60,617 bases of DNA, taken from NCBI GenBank assembly GCA_964358005.1, contig CAYHNH010000001.1:144775-205391 (forward strand), written 5' to 3'. A program made the position numbers and the translations under genes. The DNA is from an uncultured Candidatus Saccharibacteria bacterium. Lineage in GTDB: Bacteria; Patescibacteriota; Minisyncoccia; Phycocordibacterales; PALSA-1337. Under the pieces are notes generated by a model, which worked only from the letters and a program-made list of their open reading frames with translations, did not search any database and had not been told where the DNA came from. Of the stretch, positions 9,759-60,617 are shown piece after piece (positions within the stretch are counted from its first letter, which is position 1; every line of letters starts with the position of its first letter).

Positions 9759-9986
9759 CTAGGCCTTGACCTTGTCTATCGTCTCTTTAATATCTTCCCG
9801 TATATCATCCGCGGCGTCCGACACTCCTTCTTTGAGCTTCTTGGCGAACTTACCGATCTTCGCGCGTCTGCGCGCGCCGTCCTTGGTTGCGTATAGATAG
9901 TATGTAGTTGCCGCGCCTGCCGCGAGCCCCAGGAGCCCGAATCCAAATGCCTTGCTTGCGCTGTGCGATTGTCTATTGAATATCAT
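9759..9986 (-). CDS. YtxH-like small protein
   Basis: Gly/Ala-rich hydrophobic N-helix, YLY..KDGARRR, charged helical tail. Confidence 0.65.
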   Translation of the reverse strand: MIFNRQSHSASKAFGFGLLGLAAGAATTYYLYATKDGARRRAKIGKFAKKLKEGVSDAADDIREDIKETIDKVKA

Positions 9987-10192
9987 GTGAGTGGTTTAAA
10001 TATGTTACGGATAAAGTAATAAATGGAGTAAATTCTCTCGCCTGCCGCCCGTGCCCGCGCCAGCATTTCCTTGAATCGCGCCAGGATGGTTATCACATAG
10101 ATGAGGGCTATGACCATGAGCGCGCCGACTATGACGACCGCTACTGTGGTCACAAAAAAGAAGACATCTGCGTGGATAAGCGTTTCCATCAT
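9983..10192 (-). CDS. Small single-pass membrane protein (METLIHADVFFFVTT..)
   Basis: Long hydrophobic helix; overlaps the YtxH-like start; ECF-type promoter directly upstream. Confidence 0.7.
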   Translation of the reverse strand: MMETLIHADVFFFVTTVAVVIVGALMVIALIYVITILARFKEMLARARAAGERIYSIYYFIRNIFKPLT

Positions 10193-10197
10193 ATCCA

Positions 10198-10225
10198 ATG
10201 ACGGGGGAACAGGGCTGCGCTTACA
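10198..10225 (-). promoter_or_regulatory. ECF-type promoter
   Basis: TGTAAG-N16-CGTCAT, 5 nt before ATG. Confidence 0.65.
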
Positions 10226-19738: not shown

Positions 19739-19809
19739 GTTTGGAAAGTACTATAATGTGCGTACGTCTACTTTGTTAGGGGACCTTTATTTGTTAATCA
19801 TTCAATATT

Positions 19810-33626: not shown

Positions 33627-33845
33627 ATGCATATCAAGAAAGGAGACACAGTCGTAATATTGTCCGGCGATGACAAAGGCAAGACAGCCAAGGTCCTTCA
33701 GGCCATGCCTAAGGAAGGCAAAGTCCTCGTCGATGGCGTGAACATCGTGAAGAAGCACGAGCGTGCCAGGAAGGAGGGTCAGAAAGGCCTGGTCGTCGAT
33801 CGCGCCATGCCTATAGCCGCCTCCAAGGTAAAGCTTGCAAAATAA
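33627..33845 (+). CDS. rplX: 50S ribosomal protein L24 (short, 72 aa)
   Basis: IKKGDTVVILSGDDKGK KOW motif; VDGVNIVKKH. Confidence 0.95.
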   Translation: MHIKKGDTVVILSGDDKGKTAKVLQAMPKEGKVLVDGVNIVKKHERARKEGQKGLVVDRAMPIAASKVKLAK

Positions 33846-33846
33846 C

Positions 33847-34407
33847 ATGGCCTACAAATCAACATTTGAATTGAATAAAGAATCGTGGAAGGCTCTCCAG
33901 GCCAAGCTCGGGCTCAAGAATCCGATGCAGGCCCCGCAGCTGTCCAAGATAGTCATATCTAGCGGCTTCGGTTCGGTGAAGGACAAGAAGAAGATAGAGC
34001 TCATCGCCGACAGGCTCGCTAAGATCACCGGCCAGAAGCCGGCAGTCCGCGTGACCAAGAAGGCCATCGCTACATTCAAGACCCGCGAAGGTGATCCCAT
34101 CGGCTACCAGGTCACTCTCCGCGGCAACCGCATGAATGAATTCCTGGATCGTTTGATCCACGTGGCATTGCCTCGTACTAAGGACTTCCGTGGCCTCTCC
34201 CGCACTTCAGTAGACGCTATGGGCAACTACACTATCGGCATCAGGGAGCATACTATTTTCCCGGAAACTGCAGACGAGGACCTCAAGGACGTCTTCGGTA
34301 TGGCCATCACCATCGTGACGACTTCGAGCGACAAGAAGGCCACTCTCGCATTTTTGGAACATCTAGGTCTGCCTTTGAAGAGGGAAGAAGAAGCCAAGAA
34401 GAAATAG
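33847..34407 (+). CDS. rplE: 50S ribosomal protein L5
   Basis: ITGQKP, VTLRG.RM, LPRTKDFRG. Confidence 0.98.
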   Translation: MAYKSTFELNKESWKALQAKLGLKNPMQAPQLSKIVISSGFGSVKDKKKIELIADRLAKITGQKPAVRVTKKAIATFKTREGDPIGYQVTLRGNRMNEFLDRLIHVALPRTKDFRGLSRTSVDAMGNYTIGIREHTIFPETADEDLKDVFGMAITIVTTSSDKKATLAFLEHLGLPLKREEEAKKK

Positions 34408-34450
34408 GAAACAAGGGCTGCCAGGTGCAACGGCGCCGCTATTGTGAGAA

Positions 34451-34969
34451 TCATGCAGTTGTCAGCGTTCCTTCGTACATCGCCTTGAGCTTCGTGAGAC
34501 CACGGTGGACATGCACTGCTAGGGTGTTCGTGGTCATTCCGGTGCGCTCTGACATCTCTGAGAGGGTGAGATGCTCCATGAAGCGCATCCTGATCGCTAG
34601 GCGGTACTTGAGCACCAGCCGATCAACGAAGACCGCTGCCATCTTGCCATCGAGAGTGTCGATGATCCTATCATGATCGTCGGAAGACGGTTCGTAACCA
34701 GACTCCATCAAGGCATCCAACGATGTGGCCTTGCGCTTGCGGTATTCGTCTACGATCAGATTATTGAGCACGTGATACAGGAAGGCCTTCATCACGATGA
34801 CTTTGCCGCCGCGCTTCAGATAGTTCCAGGTCTTCAGAAAAGTCTCCTGGACGAGGTCCTCGCCCGTCTCGCGATCGCATACCTTGAATGATGCGTGGGC
34901 ATTGAGACCTTTTTCAAAGTCGTGGTGTGCCGTTGCGAACATATCCTGCATCGAGATAAGGGTGCTCAT
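34451..34969 (-). CDS. ECF sigma-70 factor
   Basis: EDLVQETFLKTW, KAFLYHVLNNLIVDEYRK, region-4 HTH ..VHVHRG. Confidence 0.9.
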   Translation of the reverse strand: MSTLISMQDMFATAHHDFEKGLNAHASFKVCDRETGEDLVQETFLKTWNYLKRGGKVIVMKAFLYHVLNNLIVDEYRKRKATSLDALMESGYEPSSDDHDRIIDTLDGKMAAVFVDRLVLKYRLAIRMRFMEHLTLSEMSERTGMTTNTLAVHVHRGLTKLKAMYEGTLTTA

Positions 34970-35195
34970 TTGATTTTGTACGTTAGTGGGATCTGTTTCG
35001 AAGATTTAATAAGAATTTAACAATAGCCTTATCCTCGTATATAAGCAAGGGCCCGGGTCTCTTTTTGTGCGCTCTGCAGGGACAATGTGGGGATAGCTTT
35101 AATATATTTTTAATATATGGTATGCTACATGGGTCAAAAGGGACGATAGGAATGCCATTGCCGAACTCTTAAAAGAGTGTCATAACTAAAAAGAA

Positions 35196-35867
35196 ATGAA
35201 AATACTCATCGTGGAAGACGAAAAGAAGCTATCAGAGATACTGAAAAAAGCCCTTACAGGAGAAGGTTATTCGGTTGATACGGCCCTCGACGGGGTATCC
35301 GGCCTCCGGAAAGCCCTAAAAGGCCAGTATGGCTTGATCATCCTGGATATAATGCTCCCAAGGAAGGATGGTCTGGAAGTGTGCGCCGAGCTGCGTGCCC
35401 GCCATATCCACACGCCAGTTATCATGCTCACGGCTCGCACGACGGTTGAGGATCGTGTAAAAGGCTTGGACATAGGCGCGGACGATTACATGACTAAACC
35501 TTTCGGTTTGGATGAGCTGTTCGCACGCATAAGGGCAGTGCTCCGCAGGAGGAAGACGGCCGACGCGCTCACCCTTAAGGTCGACGATCTCGTCATGAAT
35601 ACGAAGAAGCACGAAGTCCGCCGGGGAGGAAAGGCCATAGCGCTCACTCCAAAGGAGTACCGCCTTTTGAATGCGTTGCTCCGCCATAACGGAGAGGCTT
35701 TGACTCGACGCCAGCTTATCGACGTTGTCTGGGATGAGAATTTCAAGGAAACTAATAATGAGCTTAATGTCCACATGCGCTATTTGAGAAGGAAGATGGA
35801 CTCGAGCCCATCGAAGCAGCTTATCCATACTGTCCGCGGGGTCGGTTATTCTCTCGGCGTGAAATAG
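35196..35867 (+). CDS. OmpR/PhoB-family response regulator
   Basis: ILIVEDE, ILDIMLP, GADDYMTKPF, LTPKEY, IHTVRGVGY. Confidence 0.96.
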   Translation: MKILIVEDEKKLSEILKKALTGEGYSVDTALDGVSGLRKALKGQYGLIILDIMLPRKDGLEVCAELRARHIHTPVIMLTARTTVEDRVKGLDIGADDYMTKPFGLDELFARIRAVLRRRKTADALTLKVDDLVMNTKKHEVRRGGKAIALTPKEYRLLNALLRHNGEALTRRQLIDVVWDENFKETNNELNVHMRYLRRKMDSSPSKQLIHTVRGVGYSLGVK

Positions 35868-35869
35868 AT

Positions 35870-37039
35870 ATGAAACAATACATAAAAAAACTCGAAGCTC
35901 TAGCCGAGCAAGGCTCAGCGTCCGAACGACGCCTCGAAGCGCTTATGAAAGCCCTGCCTGTCGGGATCACCTTCTCGACTGATGTCACGTGCTCGAACAT
36001 CACCGGGAATCCGTATCTCTTGAAAAAGCTCGAGATGGTGAAGGGGGACAACATCTCTATATCCGCGCGGAACAGGAACATCGTGGGCACTAAGCTAAAG
36101 CATTTTATAAACGGCAAGAGGATAACCGCCGCCGAGATGCCCATGCAGAGAGCGATAGCGGAGAATAGGCAGACGGAGCCTTTGGAGATAGAAGTGGAGC
36201 TTCCCAGCGGCAAGCATTGGACTATGGAAGCCATAGGAGCACCCGTTCGTGATGAAAAAGGCAACGTCGTCGCTTCTGTCGCAGTTAACATTGACCTTAC
36301 TGAACGCAAGCTTGCCGAAGAGGCAAGGAGGCTTGAAAGGATAATATTGCAAGAAAAACAGAAGGTTGAATTTATCTCTGACGCTACCCATGAGCTTCGG
36401 ACCCCGCTCGCGATCATAAGAGGGAATGTAGACCTCGCATTAAGGGAGAGGTCTCCAAGCCCGGAAAAGACCAAGGCATCACTCGACGCCATAAATACCG
36501 AAGTGATATATCTTACGAACCTTCTTTCAGATCTTTCGCTTCTCACAACGAAAAACGCGGATTTCCATAGGAAGGTCGATCTCGGGAAAGCCGATGTGAA
36601 TCGTCTGATACGCCACATAGCGAAGAGGCACTACGGTCTTGCGAAGAAGGCTGGCATCTCGATAGATGTCGACATGAGAGATAGGATATGGGTGGAAGGG
36701 GATGAGTCCTATCTCAAGCGCCTTTTCTCTAATATCGTCAGCAATGCCGTGTATTATGGGAAGAAAGATGGCTCCGTATGGATAACAGGAAAGAACGAGG
36801 GAGGTAAGGCTGTGATCGAGATACGAGATAATGGCATAGGCATATCGAAAAAAGACCTGCCACATATATTCGAACGATTCTACCGGGCTGAGGGCTCGCG
36901 CTCTAAGGATTTCGGCGGCAGCGGCTTGGGGCTAGCCCTCGTCAAATGGATAGCAGAAGCCCATGGAGGCTCTGTTAGCGCGGAGAGCGTCAAAGGCAAG
37001 GGCAGCACGTTCAGGGTCATGTTGCCGATATCGCAATAA
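35870..37039 (+). CDS. Cytoplasmic PAS sensor histidine kinase
   Basis: PAS/PAC; THELRTPL; N box NIVSNA; DNGIGI; GSGLGL; no TM. Confidence 0.95.
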   Translation: MKQYIKKLEALAEQGSASERRLEALMKALPVGITFSTDVTCSNITGNPYLLKKLEMVKGDNISISARNRNIVGTKLKHFINGKRITAAEMPMQRAIAENRQTEPLEIEVELPSGKHWTMEAIGAPVRDEKGNVVASVAVNIDLTERKLAEEARRLERIILQEKQKVEFISDATHELRTPLAIIRGNVDLALRERSPSPEKTKASLDAINTEVIYLTNLLSDLSLLTTKNADFHRKVDLGKADVNRLIRHIAKRHYGLAKKAGISIDVDMRDRIWVEGDESYLKRLFSNIVSNAVYYGKKDGSVWITGKNEGGKAVIEIRDNGIGISKKDLPHIFERFYRAEGSRSKDFGGSGLGLALVKWIAEAHGGSVSAESVKGKGSTFRVMLPISQ

Positions 37040-37059
37040 TCGCCATCAGGGAGCGTCTG
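37032..37059 (+). promoter_or_regulatory. ECF-type promoter
   Basis: CGCAAT-N16-CGTCTG, 8 nt before ATG. Confidence 0.45.
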
Positions 37060-37067
37060 ATATATAT

Positions 37068-37544
37068 ATGATAACCCCAAAAAAGAAGGCGGACATGCCC
37101 GCAGATTTCCTCGAACGCGTCTGGAACGAGAGCATGACCCATGTAAAGACGGTTGTAGACATGGTCTCCGAGCCTTTCCTGATGCTGGATATGGACTTAT
37201 CTGTGGTAGCCGCAAATGAAGCTTATTATGAGATGTTCAAATATATAAGGAAGGATGTTGAGGGAAAGTCTCTCTATGCTCTAGGAAGCGGGGAGTGGGA
37301 TACTGCGTCTCTTCGGGCCAAATTGTCAAAAGTGTCGGAGCATGAGGGTTTCTTCTCTGGATTCCAGATGACTATAAAGGCTAAGTCTGTGGGGTCGAAG
37401 ACCCTGATCCTGAATGCCCGTAATATACAGACCAAAGGAGTTCCGGGCGATTCCGGCCTCCTTTATTCAATGATCCTTCTTGCTATGGAAGACATAACAG
37501 AAATGGTGCTAATCGCCGCGGGCATCAGGAAGAACCTTTTGTAA
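37068..37544 (+). CDS. Stand-alone PAS-domain protein
   Basis: [33 protein letters not shown]...[15 protein letters not shown]. Confidence 0.85.
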
Positions 37545-37567
37545 TATACCTTCTCAGCAAACGGCCT
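37540..37567 (+). promoter_or_regulatory. ECF-type promoter (leaderless)
   Basis: TGTAAT-N16-CGGCCT, 6 nt before ATG. Confidence 0.6.
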
Positions 37568-37573
37568 GGTTGC

Positions 37574-39070
37574 ATGAGAAAGACCATAATAGCTACGGGC
37601 GTATTCGCTTTATCCATAATAGGGATAGTATCGGCATTCGCTGGAGGAGGCGCAGGATCGGTGTTCAATACAGCGCGAGCCGATGACAGTCCCTGCGTGG
37701 CGGGAGGTCGTCTGACCTATGACCAGGCTGTCGACGCCTACGCCAGGGGAGAATTGAGGATAGATCGTCGCCCCGACTTGGCCGCGAACCGTGTCGATAT
37801 AACGGTTACGAACGGCACGCTCTGTTCAGTCGCTGTCAGCATGGGATCATATAAGATGTTCGGACCGTACAGCCTGTCTACGCAATCGCAGCAGGAATTC
37901 TTCGACGGCACGCAGACTGCGGACATACCTGCCGGTGGAAGCCAGAATCTCGCAGTGAACCTGCCCAACTGTGCTGCACAATACGACATCTGGTATGGCG
38001 ATGTTATGACAGTCCTCATTGACAATCAGCCTTACGGCAATCTCCTTGCCGGGGATCAGGTCAACCAAAACAATTTTTGTACGCATCCAGTTACACCGAT
38101 CGCCGCCAGCCTCTCGGCTGATGCGACCTGTGTAGTCCCCGGCACGAACATCGCTTTTATAGCCGCTATCACTGGGGATGGCATCACCTCGAAAACCCTC
38201 GAAAAAGACACTAATGCCGACGGAGCATATGGAGAAGTCGTCTCGTATGGACCAGGACCAGGAACTCACGCGTTTACGAGCGCTGAAGTGCCGAGCTATT
38301 CAGGGACTTATTCCATAAAGCTCATGGTGAATGGCACTGAAAGGGCGAGGAAAGATGTCACTGTGAATATTTCCTGCGGCCCTGTAGCTACTCCGTTGCC
38401 CACACCAACTCCGACCCCAGTTGCGACTCCCTCACCGACCCCAGTAGCTACTCCGTCGCCCACACCAACTCCGACTCCAGTAGCGACTCCTTCACCAACT
38501 CCGACTCCAGTTGCGACTCCCTTACCGACCCCAGTAGCTACTCCGGCGCCCACGTCCACGCCCACGCCGACACCAACTCCTACAGTTACCCCTTCGCCGG
38601 CCCCCGTGACTCTCGCCGTAGTGACCCAACCTATAGTCAATTCTCAAGGAGGTGGAGGACCGATGATCAGTATGACAAAGGTTCCGAGCCCAGCTGCGTT
38701 GCCTGACGGGCCTGGCCTGGTGACTTACACGTATACCGTTTGGAATGACAATAACCAGCTCGATCTGACGGACGTTTCAGTGGTCGATGACAAGTGCGGC
38801 CCGCTGGCGTTCTTATCAGGAGACAAGAACAACAATCGCAAGCTCGACCCATATGAGAGGTGGATATACGCCTGCACATCCAGATTGACCGTGACGACTA
38901 CCAACACTGCTGTGGCGATCGGATACAACGACAATCCATCGCGCCAACCAGTGACAGCCACAGTGATTGCTACTGTGGTTGTAGGCACGCCGCCCGTCGC
39001 CCCATCTCCGGCGGTTATCGAATTCTACGCGCCAGACTATCCGAATGCCGGATTTGCGCCTTGGAAATAG
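37574..39070 (+). CDS. Secreted Pro/Thr-linker surface protein, putative sortase substrate
   Basis: Signal peptide; Ig-like domains; VTYTYTV.N..L..V.V.DDKC; C-terminal YPNAGFAP. Confidence 0.8.
38381..38602 (+). repeat. Pro-Thr low-complexity tandem repeats ([12 protein letters not shown])n
   Basis: Recurrent ccagtagctactccg / ccaactccgac units. Confidence 0.85.
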
Positions 39071-39073
39071 CAC

Positions 39074-39721
39074 ATGGCCTTACGACAATTACATAGATTC
39101 GCGTTGATAGCGGTCATATTATCAGCTGTGCCGCTCATTCCGCTCGCAGCGATGCATGCAGTCAAGGTCCAGAGGGCGGGGGAAGCTGCAGATGAAGCAG
39201 AGCAGCTCGCTCTGATGCAACGCCGGCTCATCGAGGAGCAGACGACATTTAGCAGGCCCGTTAGGATACGCATACCGGCGATCGGTGTCGATGTCAAGAT
39301 CGAACATGTCGGTCTGAACCAGGACGGTTCCCTGGGGGCCCCAGCCGGCCCGAAGACCGCTGGGTGGTTCTTTGCCGGACCGATCCCAGGCAAGGCTGGC
39401 AGCGCTATCATAGCGGGTCACTCGGGCTGGAGCCGTGGCGTCAAAGCCGCCTTTGACGAGCTCTACAGGCTCCGCCCAGGAGAAAGGATATATCTCGAGG
39501 ATCAGAAGGGTATAACCATCACATTCGTTGTGAAGAGCTCCGGACGATATGGCGAAAAGAGCAGCACATCAGAGGTGTTCAACTCCTCCGACGGTCTGCC
39601 GCATCTAAATCTGATCACCTGCGGCGGCACGTGGAATGCAGAGAGCAAGAGCTATTCTGACCGCGTCGTGGTCTTCAGCGATTTTTATCCAGAGCAAGCC
39701 GCATCGGTGGTCCAGATCTAG
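39074..39721 (+). CDS. Class F sortase
   Basis: N-terminal TM; PVRIRIPAIGVD; AGWF..GP.PG..GSAIIAGH; LNLITC; RVVVF. Confidence 0.93.
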   Translation: MALRQLHRFALIAVILSAVPLIPLAAMHAVKVQRAGEAADEAEQLALMQRRLIEEQTTFSRPVRIRIPAIGVDVKIEHVGLNQDGSLGAPAGPKTAGWFFAGPIPGKAGSAIIAGHSGWSRGVKAAFDELYRLRPGERIYLEDQKGITITFVVKSSGRYGEKSSTSEVFNSSDGLPHLNLITCGGTWNAESKSYSDRVVVFSDFYPEQAASVVQI

Positions 39722-39724
39722 TCC

Positions 39725-39752
39725 TGTAATGATGACGGAGACCCTACGGCAT
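39725..39752 (+). promoter_or_regulatory. ECF-type promoter
   Basis: TGTAAT-N16-CGGCAT. Confidence 0.6.
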
Positions 39753-39830
39753 CAATGCGATGGAGCAAAAAGGCAGGTCGAGCTTTATACCCACATGGAT
39801 TTACAAGCATTAAACAAAACAATTCAAAAT

Positions 39831-40508
39831 ATGAAAAACAAGATATTCGGTACAGGCATCCTAGTAGCAGGCATACTGGCGATCAGCATCCCCTCATTTG
39901 CGAGCGCCGCCACGCTCAACCGCGAGCTGCAGTTCGGAATGAGCGGCACAGACGTGTCAGCGGTCCAAACATTCCTGGCCACTGACCGAGCCCTTTATCC
40001 GCAGGGAATGGTAACAGGCTACTTCGGGTCTTTCACAAAATCCGCAGTCACCAACTTCCAGTTGAGGAATGAGATCCCGGCTGTCGGCCGTATCGGTCCG
40101 ATGACTCTCCCGATCATCAATCTGCAGATGTCTACCGGCATGTACATGGGCATGAGTTACGCGGGAGTCCCTACTGGCGTTTACTCAGGTGGAGATGTCA
40201 ACGCTCCGATACTGAGCAACTTGGGCATCAATACAGCCAACACCAGCGCTGTCGTCGCTTGGAATACGAACGAGCTCGCCACAGGCGTCGTCTACTACAG
40301 CACGAGCCCGCTCAATGTATCAGAGAGCATGACATCGGTCAGCGCGAGCGGCAATAAGGCTATGACAGACTCGAGTCTGCGCACTTCGCAGAGCATAGCC
40401 ATAGCAGGACTTCAAGCCGGAACGACTTACTACTACCTGGTCTACACGACGGACGCTTCGGGCAATGTGACGATCACATGGCCGTCGACCTTCCAGACGA
40501 AGAACTAG
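39831..40508 (+). CDS. Secreted PG-binding plus FN3-like protein
   Basis: Signal peptide; LQFGMSGTDVSAVQTFL..TGYFG; WNTNE..GLQAGTTYYY. Confidence 0.85.
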   Translation: MKNKIFGTGILVAGILAISIPSFASAATLNRELQFGMSGTDVSAVQTFLATDRALYPQGMVTGYFGSFTKSAVTNFQLRNEIPAVGRIGPMTLPIINLQMSTGMYMGMSYAGVPTGVYSGGDVNAPILSNLGINTANTSAVVAWNTNELATGVVYYSTSPLNVSESMTSVSASGNKAMTDSSLRTSQSIAIAGLQAGTTYYYLVYTTDASGNVTITWPSTFQTKN

Positions 40509-40534
40509 CTAGCAGTTGTAGATCGGTTGCATGC

Positions 40535-40560
40535 AAAAGCCGCCCCCTGAGGCGGTTTTT
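40535..40560. terminator. Bidirectional terminator
   Basis: aaaagccgcc-ccctga-ggcggttttt between convergent genes. Confidence 0.75.
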
Positions 40561-40574
40561 GTTGCATCGATAGA

Positions 40575-41066
40575 TCACGATTCTGCCTGCTTTTCTAGCG
40601 ACAGGCCGGAATTCTTTTCGAGAGCGCCTATGATCTCTATCTCTTTGCCCATGTAGAAGATGATAAGGGTATCATCCACATGTATATGCACGTCCTTTTT
40701 CCAGTTGTGCGGCGATGAATCGCCGATGTGTTCGTACTTCTTAGCAAATTCTGAAGCTTCGCTGTACGCTTTCTGTCTATCAGGGTATTCGAATACCTGG
40801 ATATTGTCGCCTTTGAATGCAACCATGCGGCCGGGGACGGATAGACCTTTACGCAGCACCTTACCGCTTGATACAGGCTCTAGCTGGCTCTCCTTGAGTT
40901 CTGATATCAGCTGTTCTGTCGCGAGCCCGAGACGGGTTTGCTCGGAGGAGGCCATCGCGATCGAGACCTCGCCGGGATCGTAGAAAAGCTTTAGAAATAG
41001 CGCTGACAGAATCAACGCATCGGCGATGGCGGCGTATAGGATAAATTTTTTTAGGAAGGCATTCAT
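40575..41066 (-). CDS. Membrane-anchored hypothetical protein
   Basis: N-terminal TM; IQVFEY..W...H....LIIFYMG. Confidence 0.7.
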   Translation of the reverse strand: MNAFLKKFILYAAIADALILSALFLKLFYDPGEVSIAMASSEQTRLGLATEQLISELKESQLEPVSSGKVLRKGLSVPGRMVAFKGDNIQVFEYPDRQKAYSEASEFAKKYEHIGDSSPHNWKKDVHIHVDDTLIIFYMGKEIEIIGALEKNSGLSLEKQAES

Positions 41067-41073
41067 GCACTTA

Positions 41074-41101
41074 ATGACGCCAAAGGGCTTGCTGCATTAC
41101 A
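41074..41101 (-). promoter_or_regulatory. ECF-type promoter (leaderless)
   Basis: TGTAAT-N16-CGTCAT, 7 nt before ATG. Confidence 0.65.
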
Positions 41102-41127
41102 TAAAACCGCCCAATGGGCGGTTTTAT
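41101..41127. terminator. Symmetric terminator
   Basis: ataaaaccgccca-a-tgggcggttttat. Confidence 0.8.
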
Positions 41128-41182
41128 GCCGATAGTGCATGCTCCAGTAAGGCTTGGAGCATATGAATCCGGACCGTGCTAG

Positions 41183-41833
41183 CTAGATGGAAGCGGTCGT
41201 TGTCGCCGTGGTCGAAGCTGTCACGACGATGGGGAGCGTGACCGATACTTTCGCGCCGCTCTGATCCTTCACTGTGAATTTGGCCGTATATGTTCCGGCG
41301 GAGGCAAAGGCGTGAGTGAACGTGGAGCTTGTCACATAGGGCTGCCAGAACCAGAACCAATTGCTCCATATGCTGTCGCCGAAATTGGCTTTGTACGACA
41401 ACATTTCGTTTTCAGGATCTGAAGCATTGATGGTCCAGGTCGCTGACTGTCCAGCGACTACCGTAGTCGTGCCTGCGATCGAATCAATCACCGGAGACAG
41501 ATTCTTGATAACAGACTTGGTGCTTGTGCCATTCCTGCCGGTAAGCTTCTTCTGTATCCCTGGAGGCAGGGCGATCGTGGAGCTTGCCGTAGTCGTGCCG
41601 TTGGTCTTGATGTATCCAGGCGCGACGAGCTGGCCGTAAGCGTTGCCGTTGCCCTGGGCATTAACGGCAGACGAGGAACTTCCCGTCCCAAAGCTTACGT
41701 TTGCGTTGAGAGACGCACCGGCGCCGACCCCGACCGTCTCGAGCGGGCCCTTCGCGAGTGCCGCGACAGGCGAGAGCGCTAGAGCGAGGGTCAAGAACGA
41801 GCCTATCGCTATGGAACTATATGTTTTTTTCAT
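41183..41833 (-). CDS. Secreted PKD-domain protein
   Basis: Signal peptide; LPPGIQKKL; WTINASDPE..FGD..FTHAF..GTYTAKFTVKD. Confidence 0.8.
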   Translation of the reverse strand: MKKTYSSIAIGSFLTLALALSPVAALAKGPLETVGVGAGASLNANVSFGTGSSSSAVNAQGNGNAYGQLVAPGYIKTNGTTTASSTIALPPGIQKKLTGRNGTSTKSVIKNLSPVIDSIAGTTTVVAGQSATWTINASDPENEMLSYKANFGDSIWSNWFWFWQPYVTSSTFTHAFASAGTYTAKFTVKDQSGAKVSVTLPIVVTASTTATTTASI

Positions 41834-41881
41834 AGATTTATTATCCTTATGAATGATAATGCACCCGACGGTGCACCTAAA

Positions 41882-41909
41882 GTAACGCTAGCTTCGTATG
41901 GATGTTACA
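41882..41909 (-). promoter_or_regulatory. ECF-type promoter
   Basis: TGTAAC-N16-CGTTAC. Confidence 0.55.
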
Positions 41910-42033
41910 AGCACAGATCAGAGCTGACTTTGATGCGGCCTGGAAACGGCCGGTTAAATGCGGACGGAGAATGAGCCTGATCTGATTGAAAAGGAGCCAT
42001 AGGGTCACAGGATTCTCGTGAATTATCAATTCA

Positions 42034-42061
42034 TGTAAGAATGCCTTTTCATATCCGTCTA
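42034..42061 (+). promoter_or_regulatory. ECF-type autoregulatory promoter (leaderless)
   Basis: TGTAAG-N16-CGTCTA, 6 nt before the sigma ATG. Confidence 0.7.
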
Positions 42062-42067
42062 AATCAC

Positions 42068-42595
42068 ATGACGACCCAAGACTCCCTGAAATCAACTTTC
42101 AACGCAACTTATCAGGCTGAGGCTGATGCGATTTTCAGGTTTTGCCTAGTCAGAGTCTCGGATCGCGAGCAGGCTCTAGACCTGGTGCAGGAGACATTCA
42201 CCAGGCTGTGGAAGACGCTCTCGAGCGGCAAGGAGATGTCGAACAGTCGGGCTTTTCTGTTTACTGTAGCCCACAGGCTCATCATCGACTGGTACCGCAA
42301 GAAGAAATCGCTCTCTCTCGAGAGTATGTCGAATGAGGAAAGTGGGGAATCATACGACCATGCCGACGAAGCGACGATGTATACTGGTCTGGAGATGGGG
42401 TCCGAGGGCAGGTTCCTTTTAGAGAAGATAAGAGAGCTCAACCCATCGTATCGGCAGGCCGTATATCTCCGGTTCGTAGAGGGGCTCCCGCCGCCGGAGA
42501 TAGGCGACATATTGGGGATATCAGCCAATGCCGCATCCGTCCGAATCAATCGAGGTATCAAAGAGCTTCGGAATCTGACTGGATATGATGTATAA
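42068..42595 (+). CDS. ECF sigma-70 factor
   Basis: IFRFC..RV.DRE.A.DLVQETF, RAFLF.VAHRLIIDWYRK, EIGDILGISANAASVRINRG. Confidence 0.93.
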   Translation: MTTQDSLKSTFNATYQAEADAIFRFCLVRVSDREQALDLVQETFTRLWKTLSSGKEMSNSRAFLFTVAHRLIIDWYRKKKSLSLESMSNEESGESYDHADEATMYTGLEMGSEGRFLLEKIRELNPSYRQAVYLRFVEGLPPPEIGDILGISANAASVRINRGIKELRNLTGYDV

Positions 42596-42630
42596 AATGA
42601 ACCAAAACGTAGAGTGAATAAACCAATAGT

Positions 42631-43380
42631 TTGAATAAACCAATAGAAAAAGCTATAGAAGAAATAAAAGGGATCAGGATGACTTCTGGCGAGCGCGAAA
42701 TCCTGAGGGACAAGCTCGCGAGGATCACAACGGAAAAGGATGCGGCCGGAACTCCGGCCGCATCTCAGTTTGAGAGCCCTTATAGATTCTACAGGCTCTG
42801 GGATAATGCCGAGCGGAACTGGCCGGCGGCTGTTTCGGCCCTCATCATCATCCTGCTGGCGCTCGGCGGCGGCGGTGTAGCTCTTGCGGCCCAGAGGGCT
42901 TTGCCGGGCGACAGGCTGTATGCTGTCAAAGTCAGTGTCATCGAGCCTGTCACAGGCGCATTCAGGGGCACGGGAGAAGCTTTGGCTGTGTGGCAGGCGA
43001 GCTTGGTTTCTACCAGGCTCTCCGAGGTGGAGACTTTGGCGAGCGAAGGCAAGTTGAATGATGAAAAGCGCACTAGGATCGAAGGTTTGCTTGATAAGCA
43101 TACAGCGGCTTTCTCGCAGGCGCGAGGTCATGTCGAGAAGAATGAATCACCCGAAAAGGCCAGGGATGTGAGCGAGACCTTGAAGGCGTCGATATCTGGC
43201 CATGTGAATCTTCTGAATCAGATAACGGTTGCGGCCAGCACGACGGCGACGTCCAGCCGTTCCAAGGAGAATGCTCAAGCCGCTTCACTCATAAAGGCTA
43301 AAGCCGAAGCTCATACAAAGGATGCCGAGAGCTCTTGGAGCTTGCCGTCAATAGACAAAAAAGAGTTGAAGGGGTTGTGA
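42631..43380 (+). CDS. DUF5667-like membrane protein, putative anti-sigma
   Basis: Single TM followed by AQRALPGDRLYAVKV.V.E and RLSE; directly after the ECF sigma; start codon uncertain. Confidence 0.75.
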   Translation: MNKPIEKAIEEIKGIRMTSGEREILRDKLARITTEKDAAGTPAASQFESPYRFYRLWDNAERNWPAAVSALIIILLALGGGGVALAAQRALPGDRLYAVKVSVIEPVTGAFRGTGEALAVWQASLVSTRLSEVETLASEGKLNDEKRTRIEGLLDKHTAAFSQARGHVEKNESPEKARDVSETLKASISGHVNLLNQITVAASTTATSSRSKENAQAASLIKAKAEAHTKDAESSWSLPSIDKKELKGL

Positions 43381-43812
43381 ATAATAAAAATCAGGATGCG
43401 ATAGGGGGAGGGCATCAGTCTTCCTTCAGCTCAACTTTTTTCATTTACAATAATAGGAGAATATGCTGTTAAATGTCATTGTGCCTTTCCTGTTACACAA
43501 ACAAGTGAGGAAGCTGCGTTAGCGATTGCTAACTAAGGTGGAATTTTTTCTACATAACACCACATCTGTCATTTACTGTATATAAAAATAGTAGGCGTAG
43601 CCGAAGGGTAATACCCCTTGGCGCTAGTGCTTATCCGCATGGTAATTTTGGTCTGACGAAATACTTCTACGGTCCATTGAGTATCGAATCTTGACCATTC
43701 AAGGCCATTCTGTTAGTGTATGCCTTACCTCCATATACCCGGTATTTAGAGGAAATAGCGATTGGAAGCGAGATTCGCCTATAGGCGGACAAGCTAACCA
43801 ATCCAATTTTAC

Positions 43813-43998
43813 ATGGCGAAAACATCAGTAATAGCAAGGTCGAAAAAAACGCCGAAATTCAAGTCGCGCGTCGTTAGGCGTTGTTTCCGCTGTGGCCGCA
43901 AGCGTGGTTATATGCGCGATTTCGATATATGCCGCATCTGCTTCCGTGAATTCGCGAACGAAGGCATGATCCCAGGCATTAAGAAGTCTTCCTGGTAA
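43813..43998 (+). CDS. rpsN: 30S ribosomal protein S14, Zn-binding type
   Basis: RCFRCGR..ICRICFRE..IPGIKKSSW. Confidence 0.97.
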   Translation: MAKTSVIARSKKTPKFKSRVVRRCFRCGRKRGYMRDFDICRICFREFANEGMIPGIKKSSW

Positions 43999-44008
43999 AT
44001 TTAAATAT

Positions 44009-44404
44009 ATGGTAACCGACCCTATTTCAGATCTCATAATCCGCCTCAAGAATGGCTCCGATGCCAAGAAGCCTATTGTTTCAGTGCCTTATTCGAAGTT
44101 CGCTGAGAATATAGCCCATGCTCTCAAGAAAGCCGGCTATGTAGAGAGCGTCGAGAAGAAGGGCAAAGACCTCGTGAAGACTCTCGAGATAGGCATGCTC
44201 TATGTCCCGGGAAGCGGCGCCCGCATTCACGGAGTTGATCGCATTTCGAAGTCATCGCGCCGTGTTTACCAGAAGGCCGAGGATATCCGCACATATCGCA
44301 GCGGCTTCGGCAATACGATATATTCGACATCCAAGGGTGTCCTGACAGACATGGAGGCAAAGAGGACAAAGGTCGGTGGGGAGGTTTTGTTTAAGATCTG
44401 GTAA
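44009..44404 (+). CDS. rpsH: 30S ribosomal protein S8
   Basis: TDPISD..IR.KN, STSKGV, GGEVL. Confidence 0.98.
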   Translation: MVTDPISDLIIRLKNGSDAKKPIVSVPYSKFAENIAHALKKAGYVESVEKKGKDLVKTLEIGMLYVPGSGARIHGVDRISKSSRRVYQKAEDIRTYRSGFGNTIYSTSKGVLTDMEAKRTKVGGEVLFKIW

Positions 44405-54814: not shown

Positions 54815-55175
54815 GGGGATGATCGGCATAGACAATTGCCGGCGTCCGTTCGTGCGGCGCGAGCCGGGATGACTCGTAAATCCGTCCCAAACTCGAAATG
54901 CTAACACCAAATCGCCGTATTTCACGGCATCTGATTTCGCATTCGCCCGCGTTTAAGCGAGCGCGTCTATCTAGGGGGATCCTGACCTTAGTGTGATGTC
55001 ATAACCTGGAAGTAGGGGACAGAGCTTCTCACTCTGTCTTCCGAAACATAGAGATCGCAGATGCGTGTTTTGTTAGCTTTATAGCTCATCTGTTAAACAC
55101 CAAAGTTATCTACCGCCGTAGATCCGTTCGGTCAGCCTCGATTGCACCCGGGTTCGATTCCCGGCATCTCCACCA
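54815..55175 (+). ncRNA. ssrA: tmRNA
   Basis: 5' GGGGAUG / 3' CAUCUCC-ACCA with G3-U wobble; T-arm ccggg-ttcgatt-cccgg; tag frame ANTKSPYFTASDFAFARV* at 54900-54956; next to smpB. Confidence 0.95.
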
Positions 55176-60556: not shown

Positions 60557-60617
60557 CCGCCCTTAGCTCAGTTGGTTAGAGCATCGAGCTTATACCTCGA
60601 GGGTCCTTGGTTCGAAT
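60557..60617 (+). tRNA. tRNA-Ile (anticodon UAU), truncated by the window end
   Basis: TAGCTCAGTTGGTTAGAGC D-arm; tcgag-ctTATac-ctcga anticodon arm; GGTTCGAAT T-loop. Confidence 0.9.

Follow-up and report, generated by a model that had tools for sequence, protein, structure and literature searches.

Two probable promoter classes of paralogous ECF sigma factors at a cell-surface gene island of a Paceibacteria bacterium

Genes and candidate promoters in the window

The window, a 60,617-nt stretch from the 771-kb assembly of an ultra-small Paceibacteria bacterium (Patescibacteria/CPR), contains genes for two ECF sigma factors, here called sigma-A and sigma-B (Table 1). Sigma-A scored 87 bits against TIGR02937 (cut-off 42.9) and matched no NCBIfam equivalog at its cut-off. 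The initial annotation had listed seven promoter-like sites with exactly 16-nt spacers; all were re-found as described, and its count of five lying 5-8 nt from an ATG was correct (42034, 41101, 37540, 37032 and 10225). At 39725, the ATGs 2 and 7 nt away are not gene starts, and the in-frame ATG lies at 39795. The 37032 site overlaps the stop of the histidine kinase gene, and the 41101 site comes directly after the hairpin that terminates the PKD gene.

Table 1. Genes and promoter-like sites in the window
Feature	Coordinates	Strand	Remarks
Operon: 69-aa membrane protein (MxTLIHADxFFF...) and 75-aa YtxH protein	9759..10192	-	Pfam YtxH 2.8e-10
Class A promoter TGTAAG-N16-CGTCAT	10198..10225	-	5 nt to ATG 10192; terminator precedes
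Candidate extra class A-like site GGAAAG-N16-CGTCTA	19743..19770	+	Follows terminator; 39 nt to PG_binding + PKD gene
PG_binding + PKD protein, 596 aa	19810-21600	+	Behind 19743 candidate site
Second ECF sigma, sigma-B (ECF2), 172 aa	34451..34969	-	Predicted reader of class B promoters; left edge of island
Divergent control region, sigma-B / response regulator	34970..35195		Sigma70-like TTGCTT-N17-TATTGT and two TTAAAT boxes 11 bp apart
OmpR-type response regulator	35196..35867	+	Pfam
PAS histidine kinase	35870..37039	+	Pfam
Degenerate promoter-like site CGCAAT-N16-CGTCTG	37032..37059	+	8 nt to PAS ATG 37068
Stand-alone PAS protein, 158 aa	37068..37544	+	Pfam PAS_4/PAS
Class B promoter TGTAAT-N16-CGGCCT	37540..37567	+	6 nt to ATG 37574
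Pro/Thr-rich surface protein, 498 aa	37574..39070	+	C-terminal end sortase-motif-like, without membrane tail
Sortase, class F-like	39074..39721	+	Pfam Sortase 6e-19
Class B promoter TGTAAT-N16-CGGCAT	39725..39752	+	Leader 42 nt (ATG 39795) or 78 nt (ATG 39831)
Secreted PG_binding_1 + Fn3-like (Pur_ac_phosph_N) protein	39795..40508	+	Pfam, translation from ATG 39831
163-aa protein, hydrophobic N-terminal segment	40575..41066	-	Sequence
Hybrid promoter TGTAAT-N16-CGTCAT	41074..41101	-	7 nt to ATG 41066
Secreted PKD-domain protein, 216 aa	41183..41833	-	Pfam PKD_4 1.8e-12; target of divergent promoter
Divergent class A-like promoter TGTAAC-N16-CGTTAC	41882..41909	-	48-nt leader, ATG 41833
Class A promoter TGTAAG-N16-CGTCTA of sigma-A gene	42034..42061	+	6 nt to ATG 42068
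ECF sigma factor sigma-A, 175 aa	42068..42595	+	Pfam Sigma70_r2 + Sigma70_r4_2
DUF5667 single-pass membrane protein, putative anti-sigma of sigma-A	42631..43380	+	Pfam DUF5667 E = 1e-4, below cut-off

Conservation of the motif upstream of sigma-A

Analysis of sigma-A orthologue loci (47-82% identity) showed the N16 motif upstream in 74 of 80, with the consensus (T/A)GTAAGaaa-N16-CGTC(T/A)T, and none in the other 6; the relatives share ancestry, and counts across them are not independent. A count over 18 orthologue loci showed the motif at the same promoter position in 14. Spacers of 14, 15 and 18 nt were found in none of the 80 loci and a spacer of 17 nt in 5, while the spacer sequences themselves were distinct in 73 of the 74 motif-bearing promoters. 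At positions free to vary in the search, -35 base 6 was G in 71 of 74 promoters and -10 base 3 was T in all of them; CGG at -10, though permitted, did not occur. The three bases after the -35 hexamer were A in 71, 64 and 50 promoters, and an ATG lay exactly 5 nt downstream in 48. Within the genome, which has seven sigma70-family genes, the motif was found upstream of the sigma-A gene only. Conservation upstream of orthologous sigmas, proposed as a check in the initial annotation, thus bears out its reading of the motif as an ECF-type promoter and of the 42068 sigma as autoregulated. From these data, the ECF promoter of sigma-A is most probably autoregulated and leaderless, and its conservation runs deep.

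Two other readings of this site were considered. The motif might be read by one of three other ECF sigmas, encoded on contig 4, so that its presence at 42068 would reflect a cascade and not autoregulation. The genome does encode five ECF-size sigmas, and sigma cascades are known in other bacteria. However, the motif accompanies the gene of the 42068 type in 74 of 80 genomes, and the contig-4 sigmas have TATAAT-like boxes upstream instead of such a motif, which makes this reading very unlikely. It would be harder still to believe that the element is an operator, or an RNA or translation signal where the coding region begins, with the other matches due to chance. The element does abut the start codon, but so, at the same distance, do the TATAAT boxes of the genome; its two parts are separated by a spacer fixed at 16 nt but not conserved in sequence, it fits ECF -35/-10 geometry, and it is also found on the divergent strand and, ahead of leadered genes, at a distance of 40-120 nt.

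The neighbourhood of sigma-A was also conserved. The gene directly 3′ of the sigma matched DUF5667 in 65 of 76 cases (the window counted in), in agreement with the proposal that this membrane protein is the conserved downstream partner; it is presumed to be the anti-sigma of sigma-A. In 850 kb flanking the sigma-A loci, 50 further motif matches occurred at N16 and 35 at N17, compared with 3-7 at other spacers, and CGGC was not enriched (7 at N16, 3-11 at other spacers). In 58 of 78 loci from relatives, the 260 nt preceding the sigma also contained a divergent motif (N16 or N17) arranged back to back, and PKD, Fn3-like or Big_2 domains were found in 17 of 20 divergent targets.

Frequency and position of the motif

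The strict pattern TGTAAN-N16-CGKC, which misses the two looser sites at 41909 and 37032, matched five times in the window. This was above the expectation for shuffled sequence: the mean over 100 dinucleotide shuffles was 0.48, and none reached five. Over the 771-kb genome the raw count at N16 was no higher than at N10-N23 (10 versus 3-11). Position, however, distinguished the N16 matches from 103 matches at 18 control spacers (N8-N26 without N16): 9 of 10 had the start of a same-strand gene 0-120 nt downstream, compared with 10 of 103, and 7 of 10 were intergenic, compared with 7 of 103 (Fisher one-sided p = 1.4e-7 and 8.9e-6, respectively), gene calls being approximate and made with a purpose-built codon-usage caller. 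The proposed genome-wide scan therefore favoured the motif by position but not by raw count, and the case rests on position and conservation.

In a second whole genome (G017), 8 of 18 N16 matches lay upstream of genes, compared with 0-5 at other spacers. A position weight matrix from 14 foreign promoters, trained solely on sigma promoters of other genomes, ranked sigma-A's own site first and the 10225 site second genome-wide, and the 19743 candidate ninth (score 15.2). The CGCAAN-N16-CGTC class, to which 37032 belongs, was not enriched genome-wide (6 at N16, 3-10 elsewhere). Taken with the conservation, these patterns argue strongly that the repeated motif is a real promoter signal.

A second promoter class at sigma-B loci

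Orthologues of sigma-B were preceded by nGTAA(T/C)-N16-CGnnnn in 41 of 70 loci, the other 29 having no N16 motif. Of these 41 promoters, 31 had CGGC and 5 had CGTC as the -10 element; G did not occur at -35 position 6. In 402 kb of sigma-B flanks, GTAAT-N16-CGGC was found 79 times, compared with 0-6 at other spacers, while GTAAG-N16-CGGC (5) and GTAAG-N16-CGTC (4) were at background level. In relatives, the class B targets included PAS orthologues, 16 in number, and 7 genes orthologous to that of the PG-binding protein of the window, the latter with TGTAAT-N16-CGGC. In this genome, GTAAT-N16-CGGC occurs at only two sites, both directly before genes, and the class B assignment covers these two and is linked to the relatives by homology.

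The initial annotation had placed all sites in a single regulon, which would require the 42068 sigma alone to read both CGTC and CGGC sites, the second sigma being irrelevant. The sites do share TGTAA and the 16-nt spacer, TGTAAT is the -35 element in 3 of the 74 sigma-A autoregulatory promoters, and in G017 a CGTC-type site precedes the PG-binding orthologue (GGTAAG-N16-CGTCTG, 44 nt upstream). Overlapping recognition among Bacillus subtilis ECF paralogues is also described (PMC5758882). Against this stand the lack of CGG in any of the 74 sigma-A promoters and of CGGC enrichment around sigma-A genes, and the abundance of CGGC around sigma-B genes and in their promoters. A single regulon is thus improbable. 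The CGGC sites at 37540 and 39725 match the motif of the second sigma, which the initial annotation had not named. This sigma is more likely than the 42068 sigma to control the PG-binding gene and the sortase operon of the island, and its module also includes the PAS gene. The comparison points to two promoter classes for two related sigmas, not one.

The classes overlap, as seen in the five sigma-B promoters with CGTC and the class A-type promoter of the G017 PG-binding orthologue, so that cross-recognition is possible.

A PAS homologue occurred in 45 of 80 sigma-B loci, divergent to sigma-B in 41 of the 45. The 37032 site occupies the position of the TGTAAT-N16-CGGC promoter found 6-8 nt before the 16 PAS orthologues, and the PAS protein here, by alignment, lacks their C-terminal tail of about 35 aa, which looks coiled-coil-like by eye. 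No class B motif was found upstream of the sigma-B gene in this genome. The layout of its control region recurs where the divergent neighbour is a close orthologue of the response regulator (62-66% identity), and the TTAAAT boxes may be response-regulator boxes.

Proposed regulation

The observed positions and conservation of the motif, the conserved partner and the identities of the targets make it likely that the window holds the promoters of two paralogous ECF sigmas of a Paceibacteria (CPR) bacterium, each with its own class. We infer that sigma-A would read (T/A)GTAA(G/C/T)-N16-CGT(C/T) promoters: in the window, those of its own gene, the divergent PKD gene and the YtxH operon, and elsewhere in the genome those of a small membrane protein, a DUF2795/nuclease pair and two substrate and sortase operons. 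Sigma-B would read TGTAAT-N16-CGGC promoters, namely those of the 498-aa surface protein with its sortase and of the PG-binding/Fn3 protein; the PAS gene would be an ancestral target whose site is degenerate here. Where TGTAAT is combined with CGTC (at 41101 and before a DUF5670 gene on contig 7), either sigma or both could recognise the site. The classes are likely discriminated by the third -10 base (T versus G) and the sixth -35 base (G versus T). In this genome, the divergent two-component system seems to have replaced autoregulation in the control of sigma-B. Anti-sigma function, start sites and inducing signal enter the proposal as suppositions.

Target genes

The predicted targets encode small membrane proteins or proteins that are secreted or associated with the wall. 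They comprise three substrate and sortase operons, PKD/Fn3 and peptidoglycan-binding proteins, the YtxH operon, a DUF5670/bPH_2 pair and the DUF2795/nuclease pair. Domain content thus upholds the earlier description of the downstream genes as overwhelmingly envelope or surface, including sortase and substrate pairs, and both sigmas together appear to turn on cell-surface genes. The genome has four sortase genes, three of them in motif-headed operons; the sortase of the window scored 123 bits against NF033748, below the cut-off of 166.

The site before the YtxH pair, noted earlier as lying outside the island, proved real, with the motif before the orthologous operon in 6 of 11 relatives' loci. 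The motif was also kept at a small xPNTG substrate and sortase pair in three relatives (G012, G007 and G019) and at the DUF5670 target in G012, G007 and G017. For the 41101 promoter a single orthologue was found (G014), with TGTAAT-N16-CGTCAT about 130 nt upstream; the 163-aa protein behind this promoter matched no Pfam or NCBIfam family. The 498-aa protein had no orthologue in the genus sample and hence no footprint evidence.

Comparison with known systems

By analogy, the mechanism is probably classical ECF biology, closest to that of B. subtilis sigmaX and sigmaW, whose -35 hexamers are TGTAAC and TGAAAC, respectively. As with sigmaX, sigmaW, sigmaM and sigmaV, two-domain sigmas have a co-encoded membrane partner, envelope-related targets and an autoregulated promoter in which a -35 'AA' core and a -10 'CGT' lie about 16 nt apart; none of the NCBIfam equivalogs SigX, SigW, SigM and SigV was matched at cut-off by the sigmas studied here. 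PMC5758882 describes -10 CGAC for sigmaX, CGTA for sigmaW and CGTC as shared, a precedent for paralogues whose promoters overlap and are distinguished mainly by one or two bases of the -10 element, and the T/G discriminator proposed here parallels this rule. The B. subtilis systems differ in that their -35 element is xxAAC and not GTAAG or GTAAT, their discriminating bases are at -10 positions 3-4 (A/T, C/A) and not position 3 (T/G), and the partner is RsiX or RsiW and not a DUF5667 protein. Here, in addition, many transcripts are predicted to be leaderless and the regulon includes sortase operons.

The sigmas also resemble groups of ECF classification 2.0 and the ECF Hub in their autoregulation, co-encoded regulator and motif predictable from conservation upstream of orthologues (PMC7826278). 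The main text of that paper has no mention of Candidatus, candidate phyla, Parcubacteria, Saccharibacteria or sortase, and no numbered group was matched from it; one of the groups already described may nevertheless have this motif.

Predicted leaderless transcription

With the -10 element ending 5-8 nt before the ATG, transcription would be expected at or next to the start codon, giving leaderless mRNA, and many motif-driven transcripts seem to start in this way. The TATAAT promoters of the genome show the same short distance: of 769 called starts, 67 had a TATAAT-like box exactly 6 nt ahead, compared with 24 at 7 nt and 18 at 8 nt, and no Shine-Dalgarno peak was found over these starts. Leaderless-transcript genomes, such as those of Actinobacteria and Deinococcus, likewise lack a Shine-Dalgarno signal and have the -10 box at a constant, short spacing from the start codon. 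What differs here is that the feature extends to ECF-type promoters as well: in 48 of the 74 sigma-A promoters, 5 nt separate the end of CGTCnn from the ATG.

Two promoter classes and two ECF sigma factors

The initial annotation had assigned seven sites in the window (42034, 41909, 41101, 39725, 37540, 37032 and 10225) to a single regulon, that of the ECF sigma factor encoded at 42068, here called sigma-A. All seven were recovered at these positions, each with a 16-nt spacer (N16) and five with an ATG 5–8 nt after the second hexamer. Comparison with related genomes indicated a pair of sister sigmas, not one, and likewise two classes of promoter: class A, (T/A)GTAA(G/C/T)-N16-CGT(C/T), and class B, TGTAAT-N16-CGGC. 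What stands of the earlier interpretation is an ECF-type, apparently autoregulated promoter at the head of a surface programme. The island's gene list was likewise borne out by Pfam, and a second ECF sigma gene, ECF2, was absent from it. The window corresponds to C1:144775-205391 of the source genome, G000; sites and genes are collected in the table.

Promoter sites and genes in the source genome G000 (plain numbers, window positions; C, other contig coordinates)
Feature	Position	Strand	-35/-10 hexamers	Assignment or source
Site before sigma-A + DUF5667 protein	42034		TGTAAG/CGTCTA	
Site before PKD protein	41909		TGTAAC/CGTTAC	
Site before 69-aa membrane protein + YtxH	10225		TGTAAG/CGTCAT	
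Site before 149-aa VPNTG substrate + sortase	C3:88457		TGTAAG/CGTCAG	
Site before ice-binding-like FPDAG substrate + sortase	C4:40395		TGTAAA/CGTCTA	
Site before DUF2795 protein + secreted nuclease	C3:25635		TGTAAC/CGTCTT	
Site before 74-aa membrane protein	C1:45842		TGTAAC/CGTCAG	
Site before PG_binding + PKD protein	19743		GGAAAG/CGTCTA	candidate
Site before 163-aa protein	41101		TGTAAT/CGTCAT	hybrid
Site before DUF5670 + bPH_2	C7:26241		TGTAAT/CGTCAT	hybrid
Site before 498-aa surface protein + sortase	37540		TGTAAT/CGGCCT	class B
Site before PG-binding/Fn3 protein	39725		TGTAAT/CGGCAT	class B
ECF2	34451–34969	-		
Response regulator	35196–35867			Pfam
PAS histidine kinase	35870–37039			Pfam
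Stand-alone PAS protein	37068–37544			Pfam
498-aa Pro/Thr-rich protein	37574–39070			
Sortase	39074–39721			Pfam
PG_binding_1 + Fn3-like protein	to 40508			Pfam
163-aa protein, no family	40575–41066	-		Pfam
PKD protein	41183–41833	-		Pfam
ECF sigma (sigma-A)	42068–42595	+		Pfam
DUF5667 protein	42631–43380			Pfam

Sigma-A consists only of sigma2 and sigma4 regions (PF04542, 1.3e-12; PF08281, 2.9e-11) and scored 87 bits against TIGR02937 (cut-off 42.9). Among the seven sigma70-family genes of G000, five of them ECF-sized, only the gene at 42068 had the motif upstream. Class A motifs preceded sigma-A homologues at 14 of 18 loci in a genome-search sample (at least 33% identity). A search of 80 sigma-A orthologue loci (47–82% identity), with several positions left free and T or G allowed at -10 base 3, placed.G.AA.-N16-CG[TG][CT] beside the start in 74; spacers of 14, 15 and 18 occurred in none of the 80 and a spacer of 17 in five. 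The motif's recurrence at the gene's own promoter suggests that sigma-A is autoregulated, as had been proposed.

Base composition at the 74 sites was sharply defined. The -10 element read CGT in every one and CGG in none, though G was allowed, and its fourth base was C in 68. At -35, base 3 was T in 61 and A in 13, and base 6 was G in 71, giving AAG there and not AAC; the three bases after the hexamer were A in 71, 64 and 50 sites. The downstream ATG lay at exactly 5 nt in 48 sites and at 6 nt in seven, and 73 distinct spacer sequences were present. The consensus is (T/A)GTAAGaaa-N13-CGTC(T/A)T-N5-ATG. When a position weight matrix (PWM) was built from 14 foreign sigma-A sites, the window's 42034 and 10225 ranked first and second across G000.

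The surroundings of sigma-A were also conserved. The gene directly 3′ matched DUF5667 in 65 of 76 cases, pointing to a conserved partner, a putative anti-sigma that would bind sigma-A. A back-to-back divergent promoter, arranged like 41909 in the window, was present in 58 of 78 loci, and the genes it drives in relatives encoded PKD, Fn3-like or Big_2 proteins in 17 of 20 examined. Further matches around relatives' sigma-A genes (850 kb) numbered 50 at N16 and 35 at N17, compared with 3–7 at other spacers.

Sites with CGGC behaved differently. GTAA(G/T)-N16-CGGC was not enriched in sigma-A loci (7, versus 3–11 at other spacers), whereas its CGTC counterpart was (108 at N16 and 36 at N17, versus 3–7). 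Given this, and the absence of CGG at the sigma-A promoters themselves, sites 37540 and 39725 are unexplained by sigma-A. Their low scores with the foreign sigma-A PWM, which first made them look like weak sites, follow from membership of a second motif class.

That class was found at ECF2, which matched PF04542 and PF08281 over their cut-offs and scored 51.3 bits against TIGR02937. The N16 motif was present in 38 of 70 ECF2 orthologue loci, versus 0–6 at other spacers, and nGTAA(T/C)-N16-CG...., with the -10 left free, in 41. In these 41 promoters the -35 was TGTAAT in 32, with G at base 6 in none, and the -10 was CGGC in 31, CGTC in five and CGAC in three, so that AAT and CGG are typical, as against the usual ECF AAC and CGT. 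For both sigmas the spacing and layout are those of the typical ECF motif, and the letters agree in part. Many of the promoters, inspected by eye, had another GTAAT box some 10 nt further upstream. Across the ECF2 flanks (402 kb), GTAAT...CGGC occurred 79 times at N16 (0–6 at other spacers) and GTAAT...CGTC 25 times (0–9); GTAAG...CGGC (5) and GTAAG...CGTC (4) were at background.

Class B motifs headed 64 ORFs in relatives, 37 of which had a blastp match in the G000 proteome: 16 to the window's PAS protein, seven to the PG-binding/Fn3 protein, five to the product of C3:102774-103556, two to DUF5670 and one to the 149-aa sortase substrate. The seven PG-binding/Fn3 orthologues show the class B promoter at 39725 to be conserved. 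For 37540 the sequence is the only ground for placing it in class B, no orthologue of its target having turned up in the genus sample. These two were the only strict class B sites in G000, both directly before genes. The remaining site, 37032, corresponds in degenerate form to the class B promoter found 6–8 nt before PAS orthologues.

Control of ECF2

The bipartite motif before ECF2 at 41 of 70 relatives' loci suggests autoregulation there; in G000 no class B motif was found upstream of the gene. A PAS homologue was present in 45 of 80 ECF2 loci and divergent to the sigma gene in 41 of the 45. It was absent where a close orthologue of the response regulator (62–66% identity, six loci) was the divergent neighbour, and in five of these six the class B motif gave way to a TTGACT-type promoter with TTAA(A/G)TTAAG repeats of 11-bp period after it. 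The window had the same layout at 34970–35195, where TTGCTT-N17-TATTGT is followed by TTAAATTCTTATTAAATCTT. From this shared arrangement we infer that ECF2 in G000 is controlled by the two-component system, and the TTAAAT/TTAAG repeats, beside an OmpR-type regulator, are a candidate regulator-binding site. Wherever an OmpR-type regulator was the divergent neighbour, in the window and in relatives' loci L233, L237, L283, L286 and L305, direct repeats of this kind and period separated the ECF2 start from a sigma70-like promoter.

The window's PAS protein lacked a C-terminal tail of about 35 residues found in 15 of 15 aligned orthologues, and diverged more from these than they did among themselves. 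A complex prediction for ECF2 and the PAS protein returned 'no answer' (scores 0.00 and 0.00), which is evidence neither way.

Conservation of targets and sortase operons

The motif before the YtxH operon was present in six of 11 relatives' loci (five CGTC, one CGGC), and that before the xPNTG substrate and sortase was kept in G012, G007 and G019. The DUF5670 motif was kept in G012 (at N17), G007 and G017. We had considered bPH_2 as the conserved target of that operon; relatives' bPH_2 loci mostly lacked the motif, which leaves DUF5670 as the target that is conserved. For the 163-aa protein one orthologue was found, with the motif about 130 nt upstream.

Four G000 genes matched Pfam Sortase, three of them in motif-headed operons. 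Sortases with an adjacent LPXTG-like substrate (motif, hydrophobic stretch and basic tail) were found, the two complete substrates ending in VPNTG, a transmembrane segment (TM) and RKHAYR, and in FPDAG, a TM and KKCRSH. The class F sortase model scored below its cut-off. In the window the substrate/sortase pair is incomplete, the 498-aa protein having YPNAG but lacking a TM tail. The protein's end (region 39040–39074), 3 nt before the sortase ATG, carried no hydrophobic or basic tail, unlike the other two substrates; its sorting signal may be truncated, or the protein may be processed in another way.

No sortase was found in G017, and sortase operons are therefore not universal members of the regulon, whose core is conserved and whose shell varies. 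Relatives' sortase loci showed only a slight excess of matches at N16 (12) and N17 (11) over other spacers (1–8). In the closest relative (G012:C51; L207/L216) the sortase gene had a CGTAAC-N16-CGTTAT site of its own, 7 nt before the ATG, besides the promoter that precedes the xPNTG substrate.

Positional enrichment in whole genomes

The strict pattern matched five times in the window, versus 0.48 expected, and none of 100 shuffles reached five. Across G000 (771 kb, 16 contigs, GC 0.516) the raw strict count at N16 (10) was not above that at other spacers (3–11). Position distinguished them: nine of the ten N16 matches fell within the 0–120 nt preceding a same-strand gene, and seven were intergenic, compared with 10 and 7 of 103 matches for 18 control spacers (Fisher, p = 1.4e-7 and 8.9e-6, respectively), with gene calls from our own codon-usage caller. 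Relaxed regular expressions gave 66 candidate sites, mostly noise, and were replaced by the PWM and spacer controls. A scan of a second whole genome, G017, repeats the positional signal, with eight of 18 N16 matches upstream and 10 of 18 intergenic; other spacers gave 0–5 upstream.

Start-site geometry

Of the 769 called starts in G000, 67 had a TATAAT-like box (at most one mismatch) exactly 6 nt upstream, versus 24 at 7 nt, 18 at 8 nt and 1–17 at other distances, and no Shine-Dalgarno peak was found before the called starts. Together these patterns indicate that leaderless mRNAs are probably widespread. The ECF -10 hexamers, at 5–8 nt, fit the same geometry, with transcription start sites predicted accordingly close to the ATG.

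Relation to known systems and possible meaning

Because few CPR/Patescibacteria have been cultured, their gene regulation has hardly been studied. Our literature search found nothing on DUF5667, nor anything on ECF sigmas of Parcubacteria or the regulation of sortases in Patescibacteria, and co-mentions of ECF sigma with Patescibacteria, or of leaderless with CPR, were unrelated to these promoters. According to the main text of the 2021 ECF classification, autoregulation and co-encoding with a regulator are usual among ECF sigmas and make their promoters predictable; that main text does not mention CPR lineages (PMC7826278). Passages of PMC5758882 describe common 'AAC' -35 and 'CGT' -10 promoters for Bacillus subtilis sigmaX, sigmaW, sigmaM and sigmaV, with the -10 variants CGAC, CGTA and CGTC deciding specificity or overlap. 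Here too related sigmas are split by promoter letters, but the letters differ: AAG/CGTC for sigma-A and AAT/CGGC for ECF2. The pair falls outside the NCBIfam equivalog families SigX, SigW, SigM, SigV, SigY and SigZ, for which the best scores were 50–76 bits, below cut-offs of 130–265.

The targets include peptidoglycan binders, PKD/Fn3 proteins and substrates of sortase, the molecules with the best prospect of mediating host or surface contact. The parts could be assembled, improbable as we judge the whole to be, into a two-tier surface-remodelling circuit specific to Paceibacteria. The two-component system would switch on ECF2, and sigma-A would be gated by DUF5667. Through sister promoters one base apart per hexamer, the two sigmas would share control of nearly all sortase-anchored and secreted Ig-like surface proteins in an ultra-small cell that probably depends on a host, and placement of the sigma-A module between rplE and rpsN would tie surface display to the state of growth. 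If this were true, the programme by which an uncultured CPR lineage attaches could be predicted from DNA alone across hundreds of genomes.

The mechanism is textbook ECF biology, its specialist value useful rather than surprising. It lies in two sharply defined, widely conserved motifs with assignable sigmas and surface proteins as targets, which offer an annotation key for regulons in hundreds of CPR metagenome-assembled genomes and a natural pair of orthogonal ECF/promoter parts. The ECF promoters also join the evidence for leaderless expression in CPR/Patescibacteria.

Ribosomal setting and further observations

The sigma-A/DUF5667 module lies inside the ribosomal spc operon (region 33835–44404), flanked by rplE (L5, 33835–34407) and by rpsN (S14, 43813–43998) and rpsH (S8, 44009–44404). 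Both flanks were found in the same order in 10 of 80 relatives' loci (L053, L054, L055, L056, L090, L094, L096, L098, L108 and L112). The L5–S14 gap of L108 holds sigma and partner only; in G000 the insert has expanded to about 9 kb. A sigma70/terminator consensus scan of 34000–44100 gave a count not above shuffles.

CGCAAN-N16-CGTC, the form that 37032 takes, was considered as a third class and rejected, as it showed no enrichment. One such site, CGCAAC-N16-CGTCTA-ATATACATAT-ATG at C2:22530, closely similar to 37032, lies before rpsD (S4) within the end of the preceding gene; this look-alike is probably due to chance, or may be an internal promoter. GTAA-N19-CGT (listed as 'spacer 18') was over-represented in G000 (57 matches, versus 20–41 at other spacers), and 11 of 23 matches to.GTAA.-N18-CGTC in G017 were intergenic; this N18/N19 excess may represent the motif of another sigma. 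G017 contig C1 also held four identical copies of CGAAAA-N16-CGTCAC (38151, 241787, 280094 and 805276), each followed by a 237-aa ORF, in what looks like a multi-copy, possibly mobile, element.

An Rfam scan of the window at gathering thresholds gave no match over the promoter sites; its only matches were a tmRNA gene (99 bits, 54815–55175) and a partial tRNA (60557–60617), cut by the window end.
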